From Candidatus Aenigmatarchaeota archaeon (GTDB lineage: Archaea > Aenigmatarchaeota > Aenigmatarchaeia > QMZP01 > QMZT01), in NCBI GenBank assembly GCA_026397315.1, contig JAPLVC010000004.1, positions 64,001 to 128,000 of the forward strand: DNA of 64,000 nt, in the 5' to 3' direction. Below, piece after piece: positions 25,938-40,820 of this stretch. The position numbers and the translations under genes are program-made. The notes under the pieces are model-generated. The model saw only the letters and a program-made list of their open reading frames with translations, was not told where the DNA came from and did no database searches. Positions within the stretch are counted from its first letter, which is position 1, and every line of letters begins with the position of its first letter.

Positions 25938-26264
25938 ATGACAGCAGTAGTGGCAGAACTTAGCGATTCGAATTTCAACGATTTCGTTGCGAAGCACAAG
26001 GTCGCGCTGGTGGATTTTTACGCCGACTGGTGCGGCCCGTGCCAGGCCATGAAACCGGTCATCGACGAGCTAGCCGGCGAGATGAAAGGCAAAGTCTCTT
26101 TTGCGAAAGCGAACATGGACAAGGCCGGCGCTACTGCGAACAAATACGGCATCATGTCCATACCCACGCTGCTCATATTCAAAAACGGCAAGATGATGGA
26201 CAGGCTCGTCGGAGCGTTCCCGAAGGACATGATAAAGCAGAGACTCGCCAAAATGGTCGAGTGA
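25938..26264 (+). CDS. trxA: Thioredoxin
   Basis: WCGPC, IMSIPTL. Confidence 0.96.
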   Translation: MTAVVAELSDSNFNDFVAKHKVALVDFYADWCGPCQAMKPVIDELAGEMKGKVSFAKANMDKAGATANKYGIMSIPTLLIFKNGKMMDRLVGAFPKDMIKQRLAKMVE

Positions 26265-26374: not shown

Positions 26375-29300
26375 ATGGGTAGGGCTACTTTCAGGGGTGG
26401 GTTGATCGTTTTTTCTGCACTTTTGTTGTCTTTCTTTTTTGTGTCCGTTTTGCCTTCGCTGGCATATTTCGCATTTGACGTTCCGGTCGTTGATAACCGC
26501 GACTTGGGCCTTTTCGCGAAAGGCGAACCTATGGACTTCAACATCAACATGACTTTCGACTACCCGTTCCCGCCCGCGGAGAACGCAACGCAGCTAACGG
26601 CCGAGGTCTGGAGAAACGGCGAGATGCTGCAGTCGAAGACGCTCACCTTGAGCAAGTTCCTTGAGAAATATAAAATCGCCAGCAACGGCAAATACGCGTT
26701 CCGCCCCATATATTTCAACTTCTCGGTTTTCGTCGAGGCCAAGAACGTTTCCTACTCGCCGACGACGTTCACATACGGCGTGCGCCAGTCGAGGAGAACG
26801 CCCTACGAGAACGAGGATGACAAGAAATGGAAGGTTTCCGGCAGGATTGTGCAGGGCACACAATATGGTTTCGACATATACAACAACTATTGTTCCGGCC
26901 CGTGGGATTTCAACGAACAAGCTTGGCCCGTATCACGCGGATATATGTGCTACAGGCAGGCGGGCGACGAGGAGTGCAGGAAAGGTGGCGTGTCGGCCAT
27001 AGAGTGTAAGGCCACTTACGGCAGCACCGGCACCGCCCCCTGCGCCTTATGTTGCAGCCCCAGATGTCAACTGTCCAACACCGATTGTGTGTGCATGAAA
27101 TCCGGCTTAAACGAAGATTGTGATACGGAGAATATGCCATGCACCAAGTTCCAACAAAATCCGCAGCAACATTGGGTCACGGTACAAAGCACATGCTGCG
27201 TGGAGCAGGAAATTTTAGGTTACACATGTTCCGCGTCAATCAACGGAATTTGTTTAAAGAACAATGAAGCGGGAAGTCACGAAGAAACTATTGAAATATC
27301 GAGGGGCACTTGGGACGAGGTTTCCGGCGAGACTTCATGGACAGCGCCGGTGCAAAAAGGAGCTGTCCTTTATTTCGAAGTCGGTGACAGCAGGAACGTG
27401 CCCAACGACCCAATCGCGTCGCCGGCAGTGCCTAACATGAAATGGTCTTCCGCGCATTCGTGGAAATTCGAGACCTATGTGATACCCACGCAAAGCGTGA
27501 ACGGCAAGGTGCTCAGGGTTTACCCGGACGACGGCATGAGATATTTCTTTTACAAGCTTGATGCAAACAACAACTGGGTGCCTGCAAGCACTCAGAACTG
27601 GTCCTGCGTTACGGGCCAGTTCGACAATACCGTCCTTGCGGACGGCAAGACTCCTACAAAAATAAACGGCTGCCCGATTTCTCTTTATATGAATAAAAAT
27701 TCGTGGTATAAGCTCGAGTTCTATCTTTACAACGACCCATGGGGCAGGAGCGAAGGCGGCGGAGAAAGCAGCGACAGCGAAAACCCGCTAGGCCTGAGAA
27801 TCGAGGACTACCAGACCAAGTCAGCGTCCCTGCTTGACATCCTCGGGACCGGGAGCATCATGAGCAGCGAGCCGCCGGGAGACGACGGCGCGGTCATAGG
27901 CGGCTCCGCGACAGTATTTGCGAACGAGGGCCTCAAAGAAATAAGGGACTTCAAGATGTTCGCCACCACGCACTCGGTCGACAGCTGCTCCAGCGGCGTC
28001 GACTGCTCGATGAGGGCAGCCTGCGGCAACTCTGATTACAACGGGGTGAAGACGAACAAGTATGGTTGGATACTCAACCACGCCATTTACCCGTTCGAGT
28101 GGAGCGACGTGGGCGGCGTTTCGACGACGAAAGCCGGCTACATAACCAGCACCGGCAAGAACGGCGGGGAAAAAATGGCCATCGACGCGCCGAGCATAAC
28201 ACCCGTGAACGGATACGGGAGATACAAATACACCAACATGTGGTTTGACGACAACACGAGGCATTACATCGGTGGCATTTACAAATGCGCGAAGGAATGG
28301 CCTTCATGGGCGGCTGACTGTCCGGAAGAGAATAACAGATACAGCTACGCGAGAGGCTCTGACCAGATAAAATGCTGCTACGTCAGTTCGACCGTCACTG
28401 GCACCGACCAGAAAGTGACCATCGAATATGACACTAGATACCAATACATTATAAACTTCCTTCCCGGCGCGGGCGACAAGCTCTGCGTCGCTTCGGAATA
28501 CAACGCAGGCAGCGGGGCTGCCATGCAGACGGTCTATCAGTCCAATTACACGAACGCGCTGTGCGACACGAAGACGGGAAGCCGCTGCTGCTACTGCAGG
28601 CCCGGATGGGGCTGCAAGATGGACTGCTCCAACGAACTTAACATGACGGCTTCCAGCAAGTTCGCGCTACCGTTCCCGGCAATAGGACCTTTCTGGGAGA
28701 TTAAGAACGCGCGCATAAGATTCGAAGCTACAGAGCCGCCGGTCGTCATCAACCTTACGTCGGAAGGCAACGCCCAGGACGGGTGGGACATAAAGGCGAA
28801 TCTCGGCGACAGGGCGACGCTGATGCTGGACAAGAACTATACCATACCTCTCAACCTTTACAATGATTTCGGCCTCAAGGCGCCTGATGAAATGCTGACT
28901 GGCGCGAGGGATACACTGAGGCTTTCGCTCAACACTTCCACGACGCTCAGCGGATTTTACATACCATTCTGCAGGATGGAAAACGGCAACACCAGAATAT
29001 CCTGCGACTACACGTTCCACACGGTAGACTGCACTAAGGAAGGCGTCAGGAGCAGCTATTACGATGAAGAAACGTATCCCGCTACCAAGGGCAAGGGCGC
29101 GTGCAAAGCGGGCGTCAGGACATGCGTCAAGTTAGGCGAGAACAACCTTAGGTGGGTCTACGACACCACGAACGACATGCCCGTCTACCCTGCGCCGGAA
29201 ACGTGCAACGGCAAGGACGACGACTGCAACGGGCTGGTCGACGATGTGAAGACTTTCGACATGATAATAAATGAAATAATAAGCGCTGGCGGCAAGAAAA

Positions 29301-32300
29301 ACCCATACCAGGTCACGAAGTGCGCCTGTTTCATGGGAGCTGCGTCGTCTGACGAACGTTGCAACAACATAGACGACGACTGCAACGGCGTCGTGGACGA
29401 CAGCTCTGTTACAATGTGGTCTAACACCTGCGACAGCGCCGTCAAGCAATGTGTGAAAGAAGGCAGCCCGTACGAGTGGTGCAAGAGCCTTTACAACTCA
29501 ACGCAATGCTCGCTTACACAAACGCAGATAACAGTGACGGGCAACGTTACTGTGAACACGTGCACGGAAAAGATGCGCGCCTGCATGGACAACGCTCACG
29601 TTCTGCCGTCCGGTACACAGGTCAAATTCACATACGAAGAATGCAAACAGTTCTACAACAACTATTCCTGTTTCTTTAATGAGAAGAAAATCGTCGCGCT
29701 GGGCGACACGTGCAGGTGCACGCTTTCTAATCCGCAGCCTGAAACGTGCAACGGCGTTGACGACGATTGTAACAACATAATAGACGACGTGGAAAACGCC
29801 ACAACATGTGGCTGCGCTTTCCTTATGAACACGTCACTTGTCGCTAACCTGAAGGCATCCGGCGACGTTTCCTGCGACGGCATAGATTCCGACTGCAACG
29901 GCGCGATAGACGACGGGGCGAAAAATTGCGCGTGCACAGGGAGACCGGCGATAGACGTGGTTGAAATAAAAGGCAAGGTCAAGGAGATGTGCGACGGCAT
30001 AGACAACGACTGCAACGGCCTCACCGACGAGGCGTTCCCGCAGGTGGGCAAGCCGTGCGGCTACGGCCTGTGCTCGGGCGGCATATACGTCTGCGGAGTG
30101 CACGGCGACAAGGCCGTGTGCAACACCACTGTCAATCCGGACGAGACTTTCAACGGCAAGGCCATAAAGCTCAACTACGCCGAGACGTGCGATCTCAGGG
30201 ATAACGACTGCGACTATTCGATTGACGAGGACTGCTCCTGCACGCCGGAAAGCGCTGTCAAGCTGTGCGGCTACCAGAGCGGCATTTACTACAAAGATAA
30301 AACGCAGCTCACGCAGACGTGCAATCAGGCCATGACCGAGCTGAAGAAGCTCATCACGTGGGCCGAAGCGCCTGAGAACGTGAAATACAGGCGCATGCTC
30401 ACGGTCAGGAACAACGAAAACGTGGCGCTGGAAAACTACCCGATAAACTTCAGCCTGAACACTTTCATGTTGAACCAGACCAAGAAGATGCGTCCGGACG
30501 GCGGCGACCTGAGAATATTGCCAGCCGACGGAGAGAAAAATCTCGACTGGAACAACTCCAATCCATTCGTCAGGGCGCAGACGACCATATGGTTCAAGGC
30601 TAGCCTCCCGGCAAACCAGGAGAAGAAATTCTACGTTTATTACGGCAATCCCACAGCGACGTACAAACCGGTCACGCTTAGCGAAGTCACGGGACTCACT
30701 TACGGCATAGGAGTCTTCCTTTTATGCCATTTCGAAGGCACGACCGCTTGCGAGGGAAACATGGTGCCCAGATATGACAACGGCGTGACATTCCAGAGCG
30801 CACAGAGGGAGCTTCTGGGCGAAGTGGTCGATACGCAGGGAGCCTTCATAAACGGCTTCGACAAGCTCACTTACCCGACTTCCGAGAACTTCAACAAGAA
30901 CCGCGGCACGGTAATGATGTGGTTCTATCCTGAAGACGTGACGGAAGATCATTACCTGTTCTATTCTACCGACCTTTCGGGCAATCCGCAGTTCGGCCTG
31001 CATTTCAACGAGAACGGCACGTTCTTCGAGGCGTACGACAAGCTCGGCAACGCCCGCAGGATAAACGGCGGAATAGTCAATATCGGCTGGCATCACATAG
31101 CCGTCACATGGGACAACCTCAAGGGCACGAAAATATACATGGACGGAGCCCTGAGAAACAGCACATCCGCTTCATGGGAAGCGAATGACATAGGCGTTGA
31201 TGTGTACGTCGGCGGCGACGGGACGTCAAAGACGGCTTATTCGCTAATCGACGAGCTGGCGGTCTACTCGCAGGAGCTCGACCAGGCATCCATACGCGAG
31301 AAGATGCGCTATTACAAGCCTTATGTGACGATGGGTCCTGAGGAGACTCTGAACGAAACCGTGGCTACGACCGAAACTGATGTGTATGAAAAATGCACGG
31401 TAATGCTGCAGAACATAAGCGCGGACGAGGCGAAGAAGGCGACGATACTCAGCCTCTGCGATACTGTAAGGATATGCAGCAAGACCGACTTCCCGATAAA
31501 TTCCATAAGCGAATGCACGTTCGGCGTGCAGACGTGCGCTAGCGGTCAATGGGCCGCATGCACGGCAGTCCAGCCGAAGACCGAAGTGTGCAACCTTAAA
31601 GACGACGACTGCAACGGGCTGATAGACGATGTCGCGGTGCCGGAAACATGTGCATGCTCAAACGGCGGCGAGCCCGGCATCGAGTTGTGCAACGGCATTG
31701 ACGACGACTGCAACGGCAAGATAGACGATGTGAGAGGCATGGACACGGCGTTCTCGACGCACTGCGGATGCTACGACCAGATCGTCAACATCACGCAGAA
31801 GAACTCGGAGAAAGAAACGCTGTGCAATGCCATAGACGACAACTGCGACGGCACTATAGACGAGGGCATAGAGAAGTGCGCGTGCGCGGGAACGTCTTTC
31901 AATTCAGCTCTCAACTCAGTGGGGCCCGCTGTCGGAGAAGAGAAGTGCGACGACGTGGACAACGATTGCAACATGGTAATAGACGACCCGTGGATACAGG
32001 GCGGAACCTCGGCGACAAAGTTCGATTACCTTGGAGCGCCGTGCAGCCCGCTCAGCAGCAGGTGCGTGGGCGGCGTATTCGTATGCTCCAAGACTGCGAC
32101 GGACATGGTGTGCAGCACGTCCTCCGGCGACGGCATAAAAGGCCAGGACCTGAGGACGAACGAGACGTGCAACCTACTCGACGACGACTGTAACGGCAAG
32201 ATTGACGACATATGGGGCGACATCTCGGGCAAGTTCTGCAGATGCTACAATGGCGTGCCGAGAGCGAACGAGACGTGCAACGGCATAGACGACGATTGTA

Positions 32301-33745
32301 ACGGCCTGATAGACGACGGCCTCGGCAATTGCGGATGCGCATTTGACATCGAAGACAACGTCAACAACATCAATCAGCTTTCCATCCTGATAAGCGCCAA
32401 GAAAGCGGGCGGCGAGACGTGCAACAACATAGACGACGACTGCAACGGAGCGGTGGACGACGGGCTCGGGAGCGAATGTTTCTGCTCGGGCGGCTTTGCA
32501 GGCAACGCGGCGACAAAGCCCGAATTCTGCAATGGTTTCGACGACGATTGCAACGGCGTCATTGACGACGTAACTTATCCTGAAACATGCGCCTGCTACA
32601 ACGGAACCGTCAAAGCAGGCAAGCAGGCGGAAATATGCGACGGCATCGATAACGATTGTAACGGGCTCGTCGACGAGGACTGGCCCATGCTCGGCAGCAT
32701 GTGCGGCGTCGGCGCCTGCTCGAACGGCGTTTACGAATGCCTGCCAAGCGGAACCGGAACCGCATGCTCGACCATGGAAGGCGGCTCGGATGACAAATCG
32801 AAAGACGAGGAATGCGGCAATAATATTGACGATAACTGCAACGCGGTCACGGACGAGAACTGCATCTGCGACGTGGCCGGCGAGACCAGGAAGTGCAGCT
32901 CCAACGTGGGCGAATGCAGGGAAGGCGTACAGACGTGCAGCGCTGACAAGGAATGGAGCGGTTGCATAGGCGGCGTGCTGCCTGCGATTGAAACGTGCAA
33001 CGGCAAGGACGACGACTGCAGCGGAGCGATAGACGATTTATCGGGCGGCAAATGCGGCTGCTACGGAGGGGCGTCGCCCAAGACTGAGTCGTGCAACGGC
33101 ATCGATGACGACTGTAACGGGGCGATAGACGATGTAAGCGGCAAGAGCTCAGTCGAAGCGACGCAGTGCGGCTGCTACGACAACGCTTACGCGAAGGGCG
33201 CTAAACCGGAGGCGTGCAACAGGATTGACGACGACTGCGACGAGATCATAGACAATGTTAAGGACGGCACTTCAGTCGAATCCGCGAGATGCGCCTGCTA
33301 CAACAACGGTTATGCAGGCGTTGAAAGCTGCAACGGCATAGACGACGACTGCGACGAGGCGACGGATGAGGACTGGCCGAACGTTGGTCAGGACTGCGGC
33401 CAGGGCATATGCACTTCGACTTTCGTATGCTCGCCCGACGGCAAGACGCTTTCATGCAATGGCGCAATGCCACAGACGGAAGTATGCGACGGCAAGGACA
33501 ACAACTGCAACGGGCTGGTCGATGAAGGATGCTTCGGCTCAGAGGTCGGCAGTTGCGAGAACATGGTGCAGGACAGCAACGAGGAAGGGATTGACTGCGG
33601 CGGCGTATGCCCGGTGGCATGCTCGGCCCAGCAGATCATAAATCCCGCATCCGGCTCGTGGATGATAGTCTTCGCCGCGCTTGTGGTAGTCATAGTCGCG
33701 GTAGGCATAGTCCTGGTGTTCATGAAACCGGGAGCGTCGGTTTAA
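26375..33745 (+). CDS. Giant (2456 aa) Cys-rich membrane-anchored surface protein with ~21 MopE-like (PF11617-type) repeats, DUF2341 and LamG-like domains
   Basis: Signal peptide; ExCNGxDDDCxGxxD repeats; KMRPDGGDLRI...YVYYGNP (DUF2341); WHHIAVTW...IDELAVY (LamG); EGIDCGGVC; C-terminal TM. Confidence 0.88.
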   Translation: MGRATFRGGLIVFSALLLSFFFVSVLPSLAYFAFDVPVVDNRDLGLFAKGEPMDFNINMTFDYPFPPAENATQLTAEVWRNGEMLQSKTLTLSKFLEKYKIASNGKYAFRPIYFNFSVFVEAKNVSYSPTTFTYGVRQSRRTPYENEDDKKWKVSGRIVQGTQYGFDIYNNYCSGPWDFNEQAWPVSRGYMCYRQAGDEECRKGGVSAIECKATYGSTGTAPCALCCSPRCQLSNTDCVCMKSGLNEDCDTENMPCTKFQQNPQQHWVTVQSTCCVEQEILGYTCSASINGICLKNNEAGSHEETIEISRGTWDEVSGETSWTAPVQKGAVLYFEVGDSRNVPNDPIASPAVPNMKWSSAHSWKFETYVIPTQSVNGKVLRVYPDDGMRYFFYKLDANNNWVPASTQNWSCVTGQFDNTVLADGKTPTKINGCPISLYMNKNSWYKLEFYLYNDPWGRSEGGGESSDSENPLGLRIEDYQTKSASLLDILGTGSIMSSEPPGDDGAVIGGSATVFANEGLKEIRDFKMFATTHSVDSCSSGVDCSMRAACGNSDYNGVKTNKYGWILNHAIYPFEWSDVGGVSTTKAGYITSTGKNGGEKMAIDAPSITPVNGYGRYKYTNMWFDDNTRHYIGGIYKCAKEWPSWAADCPEENNRYSYARGSDQIKCCYVSSTVTGTDQKVTIEYDTRYQYIINFLPGAGDKLCVASEYNAGSGAAMQTVYQSNYTNALCDTKTGSRCCYCRPGWGCKMDCSNELNMTASSKFALPFPAIGPFWEIKNARIRFEATEPPVVINLTSEGNAQDGWDIKANLGDRATLMLDKNYTIPLNLYNDFGLKAPDEMLTGARDTLRLSLNTSTTLSGFYIPFCRMENGNTRISCDYTFHTVDCTKEGVRSSYYDEETYPATKGKGACKAGVRTCVKLGENNLRWVYDTTNDMPVYPAPETCNGKDDDCNGLVDDVKTFDMIINEIISAGGKKNPYQVTKCACFMGAASSDERCNNIDDDCNGVVDDSSVTMWSNTCDSAVKQCVKEGSPYEWCKSLYNSTQCSLTQTQITVTGNVTVNTCTEKMRACMDNAHVLPSGTQVKFTYEECKQFYNNYSCFFNEKKIVALGDTCRCTLSNPQPETCNGVDDDCNNIIDDVENATTCGCAFLMNTSLVANLKASGDVSCDGIDSDCNGAIDDGAKNCACTGRPAIDVVEIKGKVKEMCDGIDNDCNGLTDEAFPQVGKPCGYGLCSGGIYVCGVHGDKAVCNTTVNPDETFNGKAIKLNYAETCDLRDNDCDYSIDEDCSCTPESAVKLCGYQSGIYYKDKTQLTQTCNQAMTELKKLITWAEAPENVKYRRMLTVRNNENVALENYPINFSLNTFMLNQTKKMRPDGGDLRILPADGEKNLDWNNSNPFVRAQTTIWFKASLPANQEKKFYVYYGNPTATYKPVTLSEVTGLTYGIGVFLLCHFEGTTACEGNMVPRYDNGVTFQSAQRELLGEVVDTQGAFINGFDKLTYPTSENFNKNRGTVMMWFYPEDVTEDHYLFYSTDLSGNPQFGLHFNENGTFFEAYDKLGNARRINGGIVNIGWHHIAVTWDNLKGTKIYMDGALRNSTSASWEANDIGVDVYVGGDGTSKTAYSLIDELAVYSQELDQASIREKMRYYKPYVTMGPEETLNETVATTETDVYEKCTVMLQNISADEAKKATILSLCDTVRICSKTDFPINSISECTFGVQTCASGQWAACTAVQPKTEVCNLKDDDCNGLIDDVAVPETCACSNGGEPGIELCNGIDDDCNGKIDDVRGMDTAFSTHCGCYDQIVNITQKNSEKETLCNAIDDNCDGTIDEGIEKCACAGTSFNSALNSVGPAVGEEKCDDVDNDCNMVIDDPWIQGGTSATKFDYLGAPCSPLSSRCVGGVFVCSKTATDMVCSTSSGDGIKGQDLRTNETCNLLDDDCNGKIDDIWGDISGKFCRCYNGVPRANETCNGIDDDCNGLIDDGLGNCGCAFDIEDNVNNINQLSILISAKKAGGETCNNIDDDCNGAVDDGLGSECFCSGGFAGNAATKPEFCNGFDDDCNGVIDDVTYPETCACYNGTVKAGKQAEICDGIDNDCNGLVDEDWPMLGSMCGVGACSNGVYECLPSGTGTACSTMEGGSDDKSKDEECGNNIDDNCNAVTDENCICDVAGETRKCSSNVGECREGVQTCSADKEWSGCIGGVLPAIETCNGKDDDCSGAIDDLSGGKCGCYGGASPKTESCNGIDDDCNGAIDDVSGKSSVEATQCGCYDNAYAKGAKPEACNRIDDDCDEIIDNVKDGTSVESARCACYNNGYAGVESCNGIDDDCDEATDEDWPNVGQDCGQGICTSTFVCSPDGKTLSCNGAMPQTEVCDGKDNNCNGLVDEGCFGSEVGSCENMVQDSNEEGIDCGGVCPVACSAQQIINPASGSWMIVFAALVVVIVAVGIVLVFMKPGASV

Positions 33746-33788
33746 TCGGAATTCAATACGGCAACGAGAACAGAATGGGTGTGTTGGA

Positions 33789-34205
33789 ATGAAGGGTATC
33801 TCACCTTTGGTAGCCACTATAATGCTGATAGCCTTCGCTCTTGCGGTTTCCGGCATGCTTTTCTCGTGGGTTTACCAGTTCACCTATGCACAGAGAGAGG
33901 AATTGCAGTTATGCTCCTCGGCACAGATATCCCTGAACAATGCATACTACAACCCGCAGACGGGCAACATCAACATGGTCGTTTATAATACAGGCGGCGT
34001 GCCGCTGACAGGCTTTGCCGTGCTCATATCGACTGACAAGAGTGCTGAAACGTCGAAAGACTTCGCGACAAAGGAAGTCGCAGTGAACGACATAGGCCTT
34101 TTCCCGGTGAAATACAGCGAAGGCGTCCGCTCGATAGTCGTGCAGTCCACGCAGTGCAGGAACGCGCAGGACATGATAAGCATCTATGACGTAGAGGGAT
34201 TGTGA
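33789..34205 (+). CDS. Archaeal type IV pilin-like protein
   Basis: Class III signal MKG|ISPLVATIMLIAFALA; VYNTG; paired Cys. Confidence 0.85.
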   Translation: MKGISPLVATIMLIAFALAVSGMLFSWVYQFTYAQREELQLCSSAQISLNNAYYNPQTGNINMVVYNTGGVPLTGFAVLISTDKSAETSKDFATKEVAVNDIGLFPVKYSEGVRSIVVQSTQCRNAQDMISIYDVEGL

Positions 34206-34271
34206 CTGTAAATCAATAGACTGCAATATATTATACTAAATAAAAAAATATAATATTGGAGAGTGAGGGCA

Positions 34272-35486
34272 ATGGATAAAGATAAAAACAGGGCAATGGC
34301 AGCGGTTTTTCTCGTTTTCATATCATGCGTTTTAATCACCATAAGCTTTTCATCGATCACCCAGGTATCGGCCGCGGTAAATATTGAAAAAACATGGGAC
34401 TGCTCCAGCGGCTTCTCATGTGGAAGCAATACAATGGGCCTGTGCACGTCTACACTAAAGCCGTATCTTTCCATGTTCAACAACCAGTATTCTTTCAGCC
34501 TTGCTGTCGAGAAGCCCGGCGCCTATACATGCACTGTAAAAGTGACTGCGAACCACTTCGACTTCCCAGATGGCAAGACGGACGAGCCGAACGAGGTGAC
34601 GGACGTCTCGCTTAACGGCATCACGATAGGCTCGACCGTGGACAGCTGGTGCCAGCCGGGCAGCGTGCCATGCGTCAACCCGGATGTGTGCACGACTTGC
34701 CTGTCATACGGATGCACGCAAAAATACAATGGCGACTGCCCTGACGGTTGCAGATGCCCGTGCAAGACGCCGTCCGAATCCGGCAATAGCATGAATGCCC
34801 TGCAAAGCAGCAGCGGCTCCTTCGGCGGCTCCATATGTTTCAATATAAAGAATCTCAACGCTCTGATAAATTCGGCGCACAGGGATGGCGAGGGAGCTGT
34901 TATAGCGTTCAGCAGCCCGAACAACAGGCAATATTTCGCCATAATACACGGTATTGGCGGGAGCATACTTTTCCACAGGTTCGGATTCTGCTTTGCATGC
35001 TCATGCACGAACTGGTGCGGCGTAGGCGGCGCTGGAACAATTACCGCCAGGGAAGGAGTCACGTATAAAATACAGAAGACAGGTCCGTACACACTGGCTT
35101 TTTCCGACGGCACAACAACCCTAACATATAATGCAGCCAATGACAATGACAACGGAGCGACCATACAACAAAAGTTCCGGAACGGCATAGAGTTATCGCA
35201 GTATTGCGTTGGTTCGGGATGCGCGTGGAATGGCCATCCTTTCTTCCCTTTCGTGGACGGCAATGCGGCAATTGAAATAGTCGATTGCAGCATCGGTGTA
35301 ATATGCGACAATGACGGCACATGCGATGTCGGCGAGAATCCCGTCAACTGCCCGAATGATTGCGGCGGAAACGACGGAGAATGCAAAAACATGGATGAAA
35401 GATGCAGCATATCGGCCGGCGATTGCTGCACCGGCTTAATCTGTATAAAGGTGGGGCCGGTCAATCGCTGCGTGCCGGCAGATTAA
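34272..35486 (+). CDS. Secreted Cys-rich protein A1 (conserved N-domain, variable domain, knottin-like tail)
   Basis: Signal peptide, no C-terminal TM; N-domain paralogous to 39034-40236. Confidence 0.8.
   Translation: MDKDKNRAMAAVFLVFISCVLITISFSSITQVSAAVNIEKTWDCSSGFSCGSNTMGLCTSTLKPYLSMFNNQYSFSLAVEKPGAYTCTVKVTANHFDFPDGKTDEPNEVTDVSLNGITIGSTVDSWCQPGSVPCVNPDVCTTCLSYGCTQKYNGDCPDGCRCPCKTPSESGNSMNALQSSSGSFGGSICFNIKNLNALINSAHRDGEGAVIAFSSPNNRQYFAIIHGIGGSILFHRFGFCFACSCTNWCGVGGAGTITAREGVTYKIQKTGPYTLAFSDGTTTLTYNAANDNDNGATIQQKFRNGIELSQYCVGSGCAWNGHPFFPFVDGNAAIEIVDCSIGVICDNDGTCDVGENPVNCPNDCGGNDGECKNMDERCSISAGDCCTGLICIKVGPVNRCVPAD
34592..34653 (+). repeat. 62-bp direct repeat, copy 1
   Basis: 61/62 identical to 39378-39439. 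Confidence 0.95.
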
Positions 35487-35623
35487 GGATAGTGCGGCGA
35501 CGGCCCCTGCGACACGGACGAAACCAGATTTAACTGCCAGTCAGACTGCGGGCAGGAACCGGCGTGACATCATTATAATTGAAATGCGTGTGAGCGCGTG
35601 ATATTGATCGGAGGTGTTGGTTG

Positions 35624-38600
35624 ATGAACAAGAAAATGGTGGCTGTTTTCAGCGTGTTTTTGTTAGCGGGGGTTTTGGCGTTTTTTGTAACGAGCGTTAA
35701 TTCGGAGGTATGCGAGGTATGCTCGGACGTGGAAAATACGTTCACCCTCGACGAGGTTGCGCTCGGCGCCACCAATACCATAACCCTGAAGGGCTACGAG
35801 AGCCACGGGCTCAAGTCGCTTTCAATAAGCTGCGAGCTCATTTGCGGCAGGCTGGGCGACTACTGCTGTTTCGACGTCTCCAAGAACAAGTGGAAATGCG
35901 CTTATGATTACCTCTATTGCAACCAGCCCAACGAGAACGGCAAATGTGTCGAGGACAAGATTCCGCCGTCCGTGGGCATAGTCGGTGTCCCATCGAGCGC
36001 AGTTTCGCCTCCGGGCGGCTCGTGCAGCGTTTATTCAGCAAGCGACGTGATTGCAAAGGTCGCTTGCACGGACGCTGAAACAGGCTGCGACAATTCGAAC
36101 CTCCTGCTCGAGATAGATGAAGTCAAAAAAGCCTCGTGCCCGCAAAACGAGAACAGTTATTTTTCCGTATCAACGAGCGGCTACCTTGCCAACAGGCCGT
36201 ATTACATCTGCGCCGCAGCGAAGGATCTTGCCGGAAACATAAACTACACCAAGACCCCAGTCCAGTTCTGCACCAGCACCGGCGAACCCATAAGGCCGTG
36301 GCTTTATGCTGAATCAGTAGGCGGCTCGATAATCAATCTCGTCTGGAGCCAGGCGGGCCTCAACTCGCCGAACTTCGACAGGTATGAACTGTATTATGAA
36401 AAGAACCCGCAGAAAGATAATTTCGACGTGAGCCCGCTTAACCTGAAAGCGACTATAAGGGAAGAAAAACTCGATAATTTTTACCAGGTGACCGGTCTCG
36501 AGAAAAACACCAAATACTGTTTCAGGGTCGTGGTCTTCGACAAGACCTCACCAAAAGCCCGCAACACCACATCTGACAGCCTTTGCCTGACGACCGTGGA
36601 ATGCAACCCCGGCGAAAAGACGCAGTGCTTCACCAGGGACTGGACGACTTATTACGGCGACGAGGTCTACCTGCCATCAGGCAGTCCCTGCATTGCAGGC
36701 GAGGCCACGTGCGACGGCGGCTACTGGAGCGCCTGCATGAACCAGGTCGGACCGTTCGAAGAAAAGTGCAATAACATCGACGACGACTGTGACGGCATGA
36801 CTGACATGGAGATTGATTATGTGGAATGGGGTTATGATTACGTGCCGCTGAAAAAACTATGCATAGGATTAGGCGAATGCGGCTACGGCTATGTGGAATG
36901 CCTGAACGGCCAGTGGCAGGGCGATGCCAAATGCAGCAGCTACTCGCTGGCTAAAACGGAGACATGCAACGGCCTTGACGACGACTGTGACGGCGTTGTT
37001 GATGACGTGGGCGGCGGCAATTCCATCATTTCGACCCGCTGCGGCTGCTACAACATAAACAACGACCCCACCGTGATGCCCAGCTCAGAAGTCTGCAACG
37101 GCATCGATGACGATTGTGACGGGACGATAGACAATGTCTTTGTCGGTTATTCCGCAACATCTTCCAGGTGCGCCTGCTACAACGGAGCAAAAACGCCAGG
37201 CCAGCAGCAGGAAACGTGCAATGAAATCGACGACGACTGTAACGGCGTCGTGGACGACGGCATGACTGGCAGCGAGGGATGGCTTGTGAAGCTCGGCAGT
37301 GGATGGCCTGACTGGTCTGAATACTGCGGCACAGGGACGCCTTGCGACGGCGGCCACTGGGAATGCAACGCCGGCGGAACGGGCGTAGTGTGCTCCACCA
37401 TAGGCGGCGGAGAGAATAAGGCAACGAACGAGACGTGCAACGGCATAGACGACGACTGCGACGGCAGCGTGGACGAGGGATGTGCCTGCTCGCCTCCCGG
37501 AAACTGGAGCACATGCGGCATCGACAAGGGAGAGTGCGCCCTTGGCCAGCGGCAATGCAGCAGCGAAGGCGTATGGGGCACGTGCATAGGGGACAAGAAA
37601 CCAAAGACGGAAATATGCAACGGCAAGGATGACAACTGTAACGGCGTGACCGACGATGTTTATGGCGGCAATTCAGTAAATTCGACTCAATGCCGCTGCT
37701 ACAACGGAGGGACGCCTTCTCAGGAATCCTGCAACGGCATAGACGACGACTGCGACGGCATCGTGGATGATGTAGTAACTGGCGGAAAGACAATCGCCGT
37801 GAATCGCTGCGGCTGCTACTTCAACGGCAGTTCTACGAGAGTCCTTCCAGGGCAAAATAAAGAAATATGCGACGACGTGGACAACGACTGCAACGGCGTC
37901 GTGGACGACCCGTGGAGCGGGAACCTCGGCAAAGACTGCGGCTACGGCGCTTGTGCGGGCGGCAAAATCGTCTGCAAGACGACCGGTAATGACACTGTTT
38001 GTTCGACCAACAGTCCTTACGGCATAGGCAATTCCACTGATAAAAGGAGCGTGGAGACATGCAACAGTCTCGACGACGACTGTGACGGCGTTGTTGATGA
38101 CGTGGGCGGGAAACAGTCAGCCGCCGAAGCCCAGTGCGGCTGCTACGGCGGAGCGGCCAAAAAAGACGAGTTCTGCAACAAGATAGACGACGACTGCGAC
38201 GGAGGGATTGACGAAAACCTGCTGTGCGCATGCTTCGCCGGCCAGAAAAAGGCCTGCGGCTCGGCCATAGGAGAATGCGAACTGGGCGAGGCCGAATGCA
38301 GCGGCGGCGTATGGGGCACGTGCACGGGCGGCAAAAAGCCTGCGAAAGAAACGTGCAACATGAAAGACGACGACTGCGACGGCATTATAGACAATGTTAA
38401 CAGCGGATATTCAGTCGAAGAGACTCAGTGCGGCTGCTACAACGGACGGAAACCAGCGGTTGAGAAGTGCGACGGCATAGACAACGACTGCAACGTCAAG
38501 ACAGACGACAACATCGACTGTAGCTGTGATGAGGGCGACGAGATGCAATGCGGCTCGAACGTCGGCGAGTGCACGCCCGGCCTTAAGAAATGCATAAACG

Positions 38601-39037
38601 GCAGATGGGGCGAATGCAGCGGAGGCGTGCTGCCCAAGAAGGAAGCGTGCAACGGCATCGACGACGACTGCAACGGCGTCATAGACGACGTGAACGGCGG
38701 CAACTCGGTCGGCTCTTCAAAATGCGCATGTTATAACAAGTTCTCCGTGCCAAACACGCAGGAAGAAGTGGCCAACGGCATAGACGACGACTGTGATGGA
38801 GCGATAGACGAGGGATATTCAAATGAACCCAGCCACTGCCAGAACGGCTTCAAGGACGGGGATGAGCAAGGCGTCGACTGCGGCGGCTCGTGCAGGAAGA
38901 TGTGCGCCCAGCCGATTCCCATGAATACTTGGATACTCATATTCGCCGTCATTGCGGGCGTGATAGCGGTCTTCGGTATATTCATAAGTTCTTTCTGGAA
39001 GAAAGAGACGAAGTCGCTGTTCGAAAGAGTTAAATGA
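35624..39037 (+). CDS. Membrane-anchored Cys-rich surface protein B (Ig-like, FN3-like, ~14 MopE-like repeats)
   Basis: GGAGGTG RBS and signal peptide; AKDLAGN, YQVTGLEKNTKYCFRV; repeats; QGVDCGGSC; C-terminal TM. Confidence 0.88.
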   Translation: MNKKMVAVFSVFLLAGVLAFFVTSVNSEVCEVCSDVENTFTLDEVALGATNTITLKGYESHGLKSLSISCELICGRLGDYCCFDVSKNKWKCAYDYLYCNQPNENGKCVEDKIPPSVGIVGVPSSAVSPPGGSCSVYSASDVIAKVACTDAETGCDNSNLLLEIDEVKKASCPQNENSYFSVSTSGYLANRPYYICAAAKDLAGNINYTKTPVQFCTSTGEPIRPWLYAESVGGSIINLVWSQAGLNSPNFDRYELYYEKNPQKDNFDVSPLNLKATIREEKLDNFYQVTGLEKNTKYCFRVVVFDKTSPKARNTTSDSLCLTTVECNPGEKTQCFTRDWTTYYGDEVYLPSGSPCIAGEATCDGGYWSACMNQVGPFEEKCNNIDDDCDGMTDMEIDYVEWGYDYVPLKKLCIGLGECGYGYVECLNGQWQGDAKCSSYSLAKTETCNGLDDDCDGVVDDVGGGNSIISTRCGCYNINNDPTVMPSSEVCNGIDDDCDGTIDNVFVGYSATSSRCACYNGAKTPGQQQETCNEIDDDCNGVVDDGMTGSEGWLVKLGSGWPDWSEYCGTGTPCDGGHWECNAGGTGVVCSTIGGGENKATNETCNGIDDDCDGSVDEGCACSPPGNWSTCGIDKGECALGQRQCSSEGVWGTCIGDKKPKTEICNGKDDNCNGVTDDVYGGNSVNSTQCRCYNGGTPSQESCNGIDDDCDGIVDDVVTGGKTIAVNRCGCYFNGSSTRVLPGQNKEICDDVDNDCNGVVDDPWSGNLGKDCGYGACAGGKIVCKTTGNDTVCSTNSPYGIGNSTDKRSVETCNSLDDDCDGVVDDVGGKQSAAEAQCGCYGGAAKKDEFCNKIDDDCDGGIDENLLCACFAGQKKACGSAIGECELGEAECSGGVWGTCTGGKKPAKETCNMKDDDCDGIIDNVNSGYSVEETQCGCYNGRKPAVEKCDGIDNDCNVKTDDNIDCSCDEGDEMQCGSNVGECTPGLKKCINGRWGECSGGVLPKKEACNGIDDDCNGVIDDVNGGNSVGSSKCACYNKFSVPNTQEEVANGIDDDCDGAIDEGYSNEPSHCQNGFKDGDEQGVDCGGSCRKMCAQPIPMNTWILIFAVIAGVIAVFGIFISSFWKKETKSLFERVK

Positions 39038-40236
39038 TCGCACAGGCGCGCGAGGGTTTGAAAAGCATGAAAAGGGATAGAGTCTTAGCTTGGTCTTTCA
39101 TTTTAATCACAGCTGCGGCTGCAGCTTTGCTCACAACCGCTTTAATGCCCGCGAATTCCAGGGCAAGCGCAACGACGACCATAGACAAGACCTTCACATG
39201 TTCTGACGGCTTCACTTCAGGCTGTTTCAAGACAGGATGCATGGCCGAGAGACAGCTCAAGATGAGCAATAACCAATACACTCTTGCTTTCACCGCGCCG
39301 AAGGCTGGTGATTACATGTGCACGATAACAGCGGTGACCAATCACTTTGATTTCCCTGAAGGGGGGTCTGAGACCAGCGAGGTGACGGACGTCTCGCTTA
39401 ACGGCATCAAGATAGGCTCGACCGTGGACAGCTGGTGCCCGCCTGGCGGGACTACCAATCCTCCGATGCCCAAATGCGACCTGAATATCGAATGCTGTGG
39501 TCCAAGGGCATCGACACTCGATTGTAACAGATATCCTGAGAGCAGTGTGAGCTGCACGGAGCCGAAGCTCCTTTGCGACGATGACCCGATGAGCTTAGCC
39601 GCTATTACTAGCAGCGGCAAGGAAATAACCATGAGCCTCGAGAACTGCAAGCCCGGTGCCGTGGCTTTCGTAAGGCAAGGCAATTTCAAACCCCGCTGCC
39701 AGAACTGGCAGTTCACCACGGGCAGTGGCATCCGCTGCCCGGTAAGCGATTCCATAACCGGCGGCAAGCTGATAGCGACTTATGACTGCAGCAAAACGCG
39801 CAATTACAACATCAATCTGGATTTCCTTGTAGTCGGTAAAAGTTATACCTTGGGTGTTTGGGCTCCGTTCACGGCAACTGGCTGGAGCAGCATCAACGTC
39901 TGCGCGACAGGCATTTCTCCTTATTATTCTGAAACAAAGACCGACACGGGCGACGGCATATGCATGGGCGTCACGCCGCCAGTTAACTGCGGCAACGGGG
40001 TGATAGACGCAGGCGAGGAGTGCGACGGCAGCAACCTTAACGGCAAAACGTGCGCCAGCTTCGGATATGATGCAGGCACGCTCGCCTGCAGTAGCAGTTG
40101 CAAGTTTGACAAATCAGACTGCCTCGAATGCAAGCGTCAAGACGAAATATGCAGCATAGGGGAACACGACTGCTGCCCTGGTCTTGTGTGCACAAAATCA
40201 GGCTCACGTAATTATTGCATGGCTGAAGTCGAATGA
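39034..40236 (+). CDS. Secreted Cys-rich protein A2 (paralog of A1 with a different variable domain)
   Basis: Signal peptide (start may be 39067); NNQY, NHFDFP, EVTDVSLNGI.IGSTVDSWC shared with A1; CGNGVIDAGEECDGSNL motif. Confidence 0.8.
   Translation: MIAQAREGLKSMKRDRVLAWSFILITAAAAALLTTALMPANSRASATTTIDKTFTCSDGFTSGCFKTGCMAERQLKMSNNQYTLAFTAPKAGDYMCTITAVTNHFDFPEGGSETSEVTDVSLNGIKIGSTVDSWCPPGGTTNPPMPKCDLNIECCGPRASTLDCNRYPESSVSCTEPKLLCDDDPMSLAAITSSGKEITMSLENCKPGAVAFVRQGNFKPRCQNWQFTTGSGIRCPVSDSITGGKLIATYDCSKTRNYNINLDFLVVGKSYTLGVWAPFTATGWSSINVCATGISPYYSETKTDTGDGICMGVTPPVNCGNGVIDAGEECDGSNLNGKTCASFGYDAGTLACSSSCKFDKSDCLECKRQDEICSIGEHDCCPGLVCTKSGSRNYCMAEVE
39378..39439 (+). repeat. 62-bp direct repeat, copy 2
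   Basis: 61/62 identical to 34592-34653. Confidence 0.95.
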
Positions 40237-40269: not shown

Positions 40270-40764
40270 TCAAGGCAGCCTGATATCGGAAAGCAGCGTC
40301 ATATATCTGTCCAAGCGCTTTATTTCCTTTTCTAGCATTTCTATCGCCCTGAGGACGTCTTTCTTGTCCTCGCCGTGCATATCCCTTAGCTGCGATTTAG
40401 CGTTCTCGAAGTCCGCCAGCGAGCCCGATATGCCTTTCTTCACGCGCATTAGAAATATCTTCTTGAGCGACTCGAGCAGGTTGCCGTTCAGCTCGATGTA
40501 AAGCCTGCGATCCTGCGACTTCTTCACTTTCCTGACTATGCCCAGTACTTCAAGGAAGTCCATGCTCAGGGAAATCATGGATATCGAATAGCCCGTCTTA
40601 CTGGCAATGTCCTGGAGCGACATGGAGCCGCCGCCTATGATGAGTGCCCCTATTATATTGCCATGTATTGGGGAGAAACCGATAGACTTCGCCAGCTCGG
40701 AGAACGTTTCCAGGATCTTCTTTTCCACGTCCTGGACGCCTTTGCCTGCATCGTGCTCTTCCAT
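40270..40764 (-). CDS. GbsR/MarR-family HTH transcriptional regulator
   Basis: G.S...G.I.G.L.....MSLQDIASKTGYSISMISLSM..L...G.V...DRRLY. Confidence 0.85.
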   Translation of the reverse strand: MEEHDAGKGVQDVEKKILETFSELAKSIGFSPIHGNIIGALIIGGGSMSLQDIASKTGYSISMISLSMDFLEVLGIVRKVKKSQDRRLYIELNGNLLESLKKIFLMRVKKGISGSLADFENAKSQLRDMHGEDKKDVLRAIEMLEKEIKRLDRYMTLLSDIRLP

Positions 40765-40820
40765 GCGCTATCAACCTGACAGGGTAAAATTTATAAACCC
40801 TTTGATTTAATTAATACTTG

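Follow-up and report, generated by a model that had tools for sequence, protein, structure and literature searches.

Completion of one surface protein by part of another is known from donor-strand complementation and donor-strand exchange, which occur in chaperone-usher pili and in archaeal threads, cannulae and bundling pili (PMC9715654; 10.1101/2024.12.30.630787; PMC12337348). In these cases one strand is donated, usually between identical or similar subunits, and filaments are built; the archaeal systems are chaperone-free (PMC9715654; 10.1101/2024.12.30.630787; PMC12337348). Another kind of division is found in repeats-in-toxin (RTX) adhesins, where the so-called split domains are beta-sandwiches of the stalk that are interrupted by a ligand-binding domain displayed at the tip (PMC12077191). 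Here we describe a surface-protein locus in a 64,000-nt stretch of the genome of a Candidatus Aenigmatarchaeota archaeon, a tiny member of the DPANN archaea (GCA_026397315.1, contig JAPLVC010000004.1, positions 64,001 to 128,000; this whole stretch is called the window). Two secreted head proteins, A1 and A2, carry the first part of a domain (the A-part), and the last part of the same domain (the C-part) stands at the mature N-terminus of B, an anchored stalk protein. We propose that B receives the secreted heads through fold complementation with three strands, and that a disulfide may lock them in place; we give this reading a probability of about 0.6. The stalk is probably able to carry interchangeable heads.

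A head domain divided between two genes

A1 consists of a signal peptide, the A-part, a Cys-rich linker, a LamG/galectin-like body and a knottin-like C-terminus. A2 likewise starts with a signal peptide and the A-part and ends in the same knottin-like way, but its body is unlike that of A1. A first-pass annotation of the window had noticed the common N-terminal module of about 95 aa, and this was recovered: the two A-parts are ~54% identical and hold five invariant Cys, the odd number that had been counted. However, the two proteins do not diverge completely behind this module, as had been stated, since BLASTP (30% identity over the whole proteins, E 6e-32) finds the C-terminal Cys module in both. 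Neither protein has an anchor, the signal peptide being the sole hydrophobic segment in each.

In B the signal peptide is followed by the C-part, a Cys linker, an fn3 domain, about 14 MopE repeats, a C-terminal transmembrane (TM) segment (residues 1097-1128) and a short tail. The N-terminal domains including fn3 span ~300 aa. The PF11617 repeats reach 162 bits over 14 stretches, above the gathering score, and are thereby assigned to the MopE type; the repeat stalk and TM anchor of the first-pass annotation therefore stand. The gene positions it had given were all confirmed, as was the placement of B between A1 and A2 with a ribosome-binding site (RBS, GGAGGTG), a signal peptide and a mature start EVCEVC of its own. 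Since orthologs begin with MNSK and MKRD, the true starts of B and A2 are probably ATG 35624 and ATG 39067. The stop codon of B and the first ATG of the longest A2 open reading frame (ORF; 39034) overlap as ATGA. The coordinates of all features are collected in Table 1.

Table 1. Features of the surface locus in the window, and fused homologs with the E-value of their C-part.
Feature	Position	Strand	Evidence or remark
Giant anchored surface protein, 2456 aa	26375..33745	+	Pfam PF11617 2.5e-58, PF13385 3.5e-16
Archaeal type IV pilin-like protein, 138 aa	33789..34205	+	class III signal peptide, NCBIfam UpsA 8.8e-08
A1 secreted head protein, 404 aa from ATG 34272	34272..35486	+	signal peptide, A-part, body, no anchor
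A-part of A1, ~98 aa, five invariant Cys	34377..34670	+	A-part HMM 2.1e-58
78-nt block, A1 copy	34584..34661	+	direct repeat D7, 92% identical to A2 copy
A1 body, concanavalin/LamG/galectin-like beta-sandwich, residues 178-341	34803..35294	+	AF2 pLDDT 75-90
Knottin-like Cys module, A1 C-terminus	35379..35483	+	A1/A2 BLASTP end alignment; conserved in P0011
Vestigial Cys module, in frame after the A1 stops (TAA gga TAG)	35493..35567 (35487..35567 from the first A1 stop on)	+	read from sequence
B anchored stalk, 1138 aa	35624..39037 (longest ORF from 35621)	+	Pfam PF11617 3.4e-48, fn3 1e-4
C-part, B mature N-terminus, residues 29-75 (~47 aa)	35705..35845	+	aligns to the end of the fused domains
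A2 secreted head protein	39067..40236	+	longest ORF from 39034
A-part of A2	39178..39453	+	A-part HMM 3.5e-45; recovered again by own-genome search
78-nt block, A2 copy	39370..39447	+	direct repeat D7
P0051 fused form			C-part E 1.3e-10 (B-only HMM)
P0057 fused form			C-part E 2.2e-9 (B-only HMM)
P0055 fused form			C-part E 4e-8 (B-only HMM)
P0059 fused form			C-part E 1.2e-7 (B-only HMM)
P0062 fused form			C-part E 1.1e-6 (B-only HMM)
P0064 fused form			C-part E 7e-4 (B-only HMM)
P0043 fused form			C-part E 4e-3 (B-only HMM)

That A- and C-part belong to one domain follows from homologs in which both are joined. An A-part profile (built from the alignment, not the protein, labelled A2) was run against 1.84 billion representative proteins and matched 52 of them. 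A hidden Markov model (HMM) of the C-part, built solely from the N-termini of B proteins, was then run over these matches. The fused homologs for which the first-pass annotation had advised a search were found: seven ORFs contain the C-part 1-25 residues behind the A-part. No A1/A2-type protein contains a B-type segment. In A1 and A2 themselves no C-part-like segment was detected at E<=1, which agrees with the earlier statement that neither holds the missing strands, and at the same threshold none was detected elsewhere in the genome apart from the copy in B. This genome encodes the A-part twice and the C-part once, and a whole domain is absent from it.

In the joint alignment the A pieces and the B pieces tile the fused domain with zero overlap, the A-part of A1 taking columns 1-140 of alignment A3. 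The split point lies between a D..C.PGG motif and a CxxC, and this CxxC opens B directly after the signal peptide. The missing-strand situation of donor-strand complementation is thus present: the A-parts lack the last three strands, and the mature N-terminus of B has them.

The fused proteins differ in what follows the head. P0064 and P0043 have a signal peptide, the whole domain, MopE repeats and a TM anchor, and so look like a B-type stalk with an undivided head. P0062 has head and anchor in the same way but without Pfam-detected repeats, and P0055 and P0059 have head and repeats without an evident anchor. The contigs of P0064, P0043 and P0062 are ordinary archaeal ones. A word-index search with P0064:26-165 for further fused forms returned the query itself only. 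In three other proteins (P0027, P0032 and P0042) B and A are fused in this order, the TM anchor of B running into the signal peptide of A, a hairpin that would leave both modules outside the cell. The genome G158 has its sole A-part and its sole C-part in one such B-A fusion ORF of 1769 aa (contig C2, L018:8435-13741). Finally, P0036 is interrupted in cis: it contains the A-part, a 420-aa body and the C-part with no signal peptide in between. The domain thus exists in nature in four arrangements: in one contiguous piece, with a body inserted in cis, divided in trans, or joined again with its pieces in permuted order.

The trans-split arrangement is conserved among relatives. Six related loci from independent samples always contain one B with the C-part at its mature N-terminus, together with a single A gene upstream and between one and three A genes downstream. 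In L003, L004, L005/6, L007 and L008/9 one B each is accompanied by one to four A genes with differing bodies; the upstream A of L005/6 is fragmented. A conserved B beside A genes of variable number and content is what the comparison of synteny proposed by the first-pass annotation brought out, and this picture, with its fast turnover of A genes, agrees with the split-domain idea. In the distant relative L013, an A with an FG-GAP/PKD body lies directly upstream of a B with a diverged C-part at its mature N-terminus.

A split that is only an artefact, i.e., a broken gene or a misassembly at a pseudogenised locus, would be in line with the vestigial module behind the A1 stop, with a 95-aa remnant in L004 and with the fragmented upstream A of L005/6. 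However, at least six independent assemblies from different samples show this split with both ORFs and signal peptides intact, and B and the A-parts are under clear constraint. We regard this explanation as practically negligible.

The two halves might also be joined into one chain, by RNA-level joining from ~34653 to 35705, by protein trans-splicing or by recoding. The precise split point would suit this, as would a relative's A1 ortholog that ends in two Hint domains. But A1 in the window has no Hint domain, the ~270 codons past the A-part encode a conserved, foldable body, B has its own RBS and signal peptide, and separate intact ORFs are kept in all orthologous loci. A single joined chain is therefore very improbable.

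Predicted fold, constraint and proposed docking

The fold of the undivided domain was predicted with AlphaFold2 (AF2) and alignment A3 on P0057:21-158. The model is a single all-beta domain with a predicted local distance difference test score (pLDDT) of 94.8 and a predicted template modelling score (pTM) of 0.88. Its A-part forms seven strands, six of them short, and its C-part forms the strands 97-107, 112-118 and 123-133, which are three of the four longest. The proposal that A carries the first strands and B the last three or so of one fold is thus borne out by the tiling of the homologs and by this model. Residues 3-133 align to entire carbohydrate-binding modules (CBMs) of the families CBM36, CBM35 and CBM6 (Z 10-10.7), with 7ay3 at Z 10.6, a root mean square deviation (rmsd) of 2.7 A and 111 aligned residues, 1w0n at Z 10.5, 5fui at Z 10.3 and 2w46 at Z 10.2. 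Foldseek and the ESM Atlas give the same fold class for the head domain (Atlas TM 0.56-0.72). The CBM-like jelly roll that had been suspected from motifs is therefore found at the level of the fold, as a CBM6/35/36-type beta-jelly-roll on the predicted model of a homolog and not of the window's own proteins. On the sequence level, A1, A2, the N-terminus of B and the fused forms have no match to any Pfam family, CBM_6 and CBM_35 included, at E<=0.1; the A3 profile finds nothing relevant among PDB sequences, and NCBIfam likewise has no family for the head domain.

When the whole of A1 was modelled (7-row alignment), the A-part stayed below a pLDDT of 50 although it is better conserved than the body, which reached 75-90. 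For prediction of the complex, a 45-row alignment of the A-part and 18 rows of the C-part were used, together with three controls. The A chain has a pLDDT of 59-63 with B and of 43-45 with unrelated partners; the B chain has 65-69 with A and 37 without it. An A N-region that folds as a complete domain on its own, which would have spoken against the split, was thus not seen. The runs agree in at least 90% of the contacts, with a partner pLDDT of 65-69. An A-B interface, as asked for by the first-pass annotation, was indeed predicted, with a score of 0.46 against 0.02 for the best control; its weight is small. None of the three outcomes that the first-pass annotation had named as refuting the split came about. 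The score mark is reached by 58 of 80 solved complexes and by two of 110 mismatched pairs, and at scores of 0.60 or less by seven of the 80 solved complexes and by both of the passing mismatches. Moreover, halves of one fold tend to pass through their likeness to solved single-chain folds, and a pass therefore stands for compatibility with one fold and not for binding.

The C-part contains three invariant Cys, with a CxxC among them. If the five Cys of the A-part and the three of the C-part all pair within the domain, the A-part and the C-part have to be connected by at least one disulfide, which in the split system would be an inter-chain bond. The argument from the Cys numbers is only suggestive.

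Constraint on the C-part is clear, as it is the best-conserved segment in the ectodomain of B. Identity to P0018 amounts to 94% in the C-part, 78% in the adjacent Cys linker and 52-69% in the other ectodomain regions. For P0020 and P0021 it is 64-68% in the C-part against 30-49% in the three segments after the Cys linker. The stalk is also better conserved than the heads: between genomes B is 94% identical (three genomes), whereas A1 is 77% and 53% identical.

The A-part was detected in 11 of 301 genomes of the phylum, ten of these belonging to one family (f1). In a comparison of 23 genomes (this family and G130) the C-part is present in five of ten A-positive and in none of 13 A-negative genomes; drawn from related and incomplete genomes, these numbers are a tally and not a statistical test.

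Several observations weigh against docking. Many A-part proteins have no adjacent C-part; none lies within 10 kb of P0056, and in two A-positive genomes, G026 (93% complete) and G130, even a threshold of E<=10 brought up no C-part. The A-part may hence function without a C-part partner, or with one that escapes detection. The cis-interrupted P0036 is flanked by assembly gaps. The fold of A1 used seven sequences, which makes the low pLDDT of its A-part soft evidence, and the Cys-rich linker of A1 could satisfy the fifth Cys, which weakens the parity argument. That the strands of the C-part interleave with those of the A-part is deduced from alignments of the whole domain to CBMs and from general jelly-roll topology. 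With a complex score of 0.46, modelling lends weak support to the proposed binding of A to B. Matches to the C-part in G192 and G210 (E 0.01 and 0.07) are marginal, lie in short frames and were disregarded.

The same observations can be turned into an explanation of their own, in which two modules of common ancestry no longer cooperate. The A-part would be self-sufficient, the 47 residues of B an independent cap, and the adjacency of the genes a matter of surface-gene clustering. This would account for A-part-only proteins being common and occurring alone, for the two genomes with an A-part and no detectable C-part and for the weak complex prediction. On the other hand, the fused form is a single jelly roll to which the C-part contributes three of the four longest strands. 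Further points against this explanation are that no ectodomain segment of B is conserved as well as the C-part, that within the family the C-part was never found without the A-part (0 of 13), that the A-B pairing is kept in L013 despite a wholly different body, and that B-A fusions arose repeatedly. We consider loss of cooperation unlikely.

According to the docking model, the ancestor was likely a protein with a signal peptide, a whole CBM6/35/36-like jelly-roll head of ~140 aa, a MopE-repeat stalk and a TM anchor, an architecture that survives in other archaea. In this Aenigmarchaeota-like lineage the head domain is divided after the seventh strand. B retains the last three long strands, which cleavage of the signal peptide exposes on top of the stalk, and the first ~95 residues open the mature chains of A1 and A2, two separate secreted proteins with a body of their own each. 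After Sec export the A-part would fold onto the C-part of B and rebuild the jelly roll, and an A-to-C disulfide would lock the pair if all eight conserved Cys (5 + 3) pair within the domain. B would in this way be capped with whichever head is made, and heads could be exchanged over evolutionary time via recombination in the A-part.

Head bodies, recombination and surrounding genes

The model of the A1 body resembles laminin LG, neurexin LNS and galectin domains with middling Z scores of 8.0-8.6 (rmsd 3.0-3.4, 117-128 residues aligned). As a further correction to the first-pass annotation, the whole body is conserved within the A1 family. Among relatives, domains of the FG-GAP propeller, PKD or Hint type replace the LamG-like body of the A proteins. 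Binding of the heads to host or glycan surfaces is plausible.

Both A proteins close with the knottin-like Cys pattern C-x6-C-x5/6-CC-x4-C-x8/9-C (35379-35483 and 40126-40233), and these ends give a sub-threshold match to the CCPGW bacteriocin family (E 0.01). The vestige behind the A1 stop reads CGDGPC...C..DC and resembles the CGDGTC...C..DC end of P0011, showing a recent shortening of A1. In P0008 (L003:10001-11908), the A1 ortholog of a close relative, two intein-like/PT-HINT Hint domains replace the knottin-like end. Hint/intein matches are also present in the giant proteins of L007 and L013, and self-cleaving or ligating modules therefore circulate among these surface genes.

Such ends bring to mind released polymorphic effectors or toxins, with the A-part as a secretion, sorting or pro-domain instead of a docking half. 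The knottin-like C-termini with their bacteriocin match, a further sub-threshold match of P0013 to a conotoxin family (E 0.026), the PT-HINT/intein-type Hint domains of P0008 and the cassette-like turnover of genes that leaves remnants would all be in keeping with this role. However, Pfam and NCBIfam contain no toxin or immunity family for A1 or A2, the bodies resemble lectin, propeller or PKD binding domains, and the presence of exactly the missing strands on B is left unexplained. An effector role instead of docking is thus quite improbable, but it could coexist with docking.

Recombination between the head genes is recorded in a 78-nt block that A1 and A2 have in common (Table 1) and that covers the end of the A-part, with its last strands and the Cys that precedes the split point. 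Identity at third codon positions between A1 and A2 is 1.00 in this block and 0.2-0.4 in the remaining A-part. Within the block, paralogs of the same genome are more alike than orthologs, which indicates gene conversion at the junction of constant and variable parts. Conversion at this place fits the need of both heads to match one shared partner. In addition, A2 (39034-40236) is a mosaic when compared with L003:15402-17941, a region of a related genome with P0013 and P0014 as first and second downstream paralogs: its leader is close to P0013, its A-part and body are close to P0014, and its knottin-like end is close to A1. This looks like unequal crossing-over between tandem A genes. An inversion or shufflon mechanism was considered and dropped, as one weak 18-nt inverted pair was all that was found.

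The slots for head genes also differ in content between relatives. Downstream of B they hold one gene, three genes or the 95-aa remnant. The latter (L004:11073-11360) combines an A2-type signal peptide and the first ~15 residues of the A-part with a C-terminal Cys module that follows directly, and is an internal deletion of a head gene. The upstream slot at L005:7056-8005 is occupied by two short ORFs. Neither encodes more than the first half of an A-part, and the second overlaps the start of B.

The genome comprises 1.05 Mb in seven contigs and is 91% complete; its closest protein relatives are named Candidatus Aenigmatarchaeota. Among public sequencing runs the stretch is present in DNA runs of freshwater-sediment metagenomes only, with no RNA run among those that contain it. 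The locus at 26375-40236 consists of five co-oriented, closely spaced genes, which encode a giant protein, a pilin-like protein, A1, B and A2. The giant gene opens the conserved locus and has the same place in L003, L005, L007 and L013. Its product is composed of MopE-type Cys repeats, DUF2341, LamG and a C-terminal TM segment; the PF11617 repeats are again above the gathering score (194 bits) and of the MopE type, and both A-part and C-part are absent from it. The pilin that the first-pass annotation had placed beside the A and B genes is present. Its N-terminus reads MKG followed by ISPLVATIMLIAFALAV, i.e., a class III signal peptide with a hydrophobic N-terminal helix, and is matched by UpsA and archaellin N-terminal models, the match to arch_flag_Nterm (TIGR02537) being 4.4e-04 with 19.7 bits at a cut-off of 20. 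At its position every related locus has a gene of 138-140 aa.

Directly upstream of the giant gene a thioredoxin is encoded at 25938-26264, in the same order as in L003 and L013. It was dropped as a candidate for a dedicated oxidoreductase, having no signal peptide and resembling an ordinary cytoplasmic thioredoxin of the WCGPC type. Downstream, 40270-43451 contains a divergent gene of 164 aa and a radical-SAM protein of the tetraether-synthase type with a Zn-ribbon (PF23545+PF04055); an AT-rich patch of this region (GC 0.40) holds a LAGLIDADG endonuclease gene in antisense orientation. The L007 counterpart of the radical-SAM gene contains an intein.

Comparison with known systems

DPANN archaea are attached to the cells of their hosts, and little is known about how these are recognised. 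If the docking model is true, it offers a way for a 1-Mb genome to field several exchangeable binding heads on one conserved stalk. As evolutionary stages, the four arrangements of the domain are all extant. The pieces are small (~95 aa and 47 aa) and easy to test, and in case of tight or covalent binding they would make a new natural split-tag pair. There is, in our estimate, an even chance that the trans-split domain is a general docking device on archaeal surfaces. Any secreted protein with a matching incomplete jelly roll of ~95 aa would then fold onto the three orphan strands of a stalk, possibly with a disulfide lock, which would provide tiny episymbiotic DPANN archaea with recombination-driven plug-in heads for host or glycan binding.

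In the literature no description was found of a CBM-like head of which one piece stands on an anchored stalk and the other, in trans, on alternative secreted proteins. The docking principle as proposed would thus extend known fold complementation, with the trans-split CBM-like head as the part for which we found no earlier description. Over its whole length the predicted reconstituted fold matches modules of CBM6, CBM35, CBM36 and CBM60, but it differs from them by the lack of any match to a Pfam or PDB sequence family and by its eight conserved Cys. To our knowledge no known CBM is encoded in two genes.

The split domains of RTX adhesins are paralleled in cis by P0036 with its A-part, 420-aa body and C-part. 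They are, however, Ig-like and formed by continuous polypeptides, whereas in the window two separate genes, both with a signal peptide, encode the pieces, the chain being interrupted behind the inserted body. The organisms, the secretion route and the fold (CBM-like here) differ as well, and the break into two genes allows for alternative heads.

Like cohesin-dockerin display, the proposed system would consist of an anchored scaffold with interchangeable secreted modules that are attached via a dedicated docking pair, and as in SpyTag/SpyCatcher and split GFP, two fragments would reconstitute one fold. Cohesin and dockerin are each complete as a domain, and the Spy pair and split GFP are man-made. 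What distinguishes A- and C-part from all of these is that they would form a pair split by nature, possibly locked by a disulfide.

The locus resembles polymorphic toxin and contact-dependent inhibition (CDI) cassettes in joining a constant N-terminal module to C-terminal parts that vary, and in its tandem alternative cassettes and remnants. Hint domains, which here occur in relatives, and recombination where the constant part meets the variable one are further common features. In distinction from these loci, no recognisable toxin/immunity pair was found here, and the constant module is half of a structural domain of which the other half is located on an anchored neighbour.

The closest parallel in principle is donor-strand complementation, in which, as proposed here, an incomplete beta-sandwich is completed in trans, outside the cell, by the N-terminal extension of another secreted chain. 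The differences lie in what is donated and to whom. Instead of a single strand in an Ig or pilin fold, three long strands are concerned here, which make up roughly one third of a CBM-like jelly roll. They would be donated by a membrane-anchored stalk, and several secreted proteins with unrelated bodies would accept them. Instead of a filament, a 1:1 cap would be formed, with no hint of self-polymerisation. The model would thus carry fold complementation from single-strand filament pilins to heteromeric capping by three strands in a lectin-type fold.

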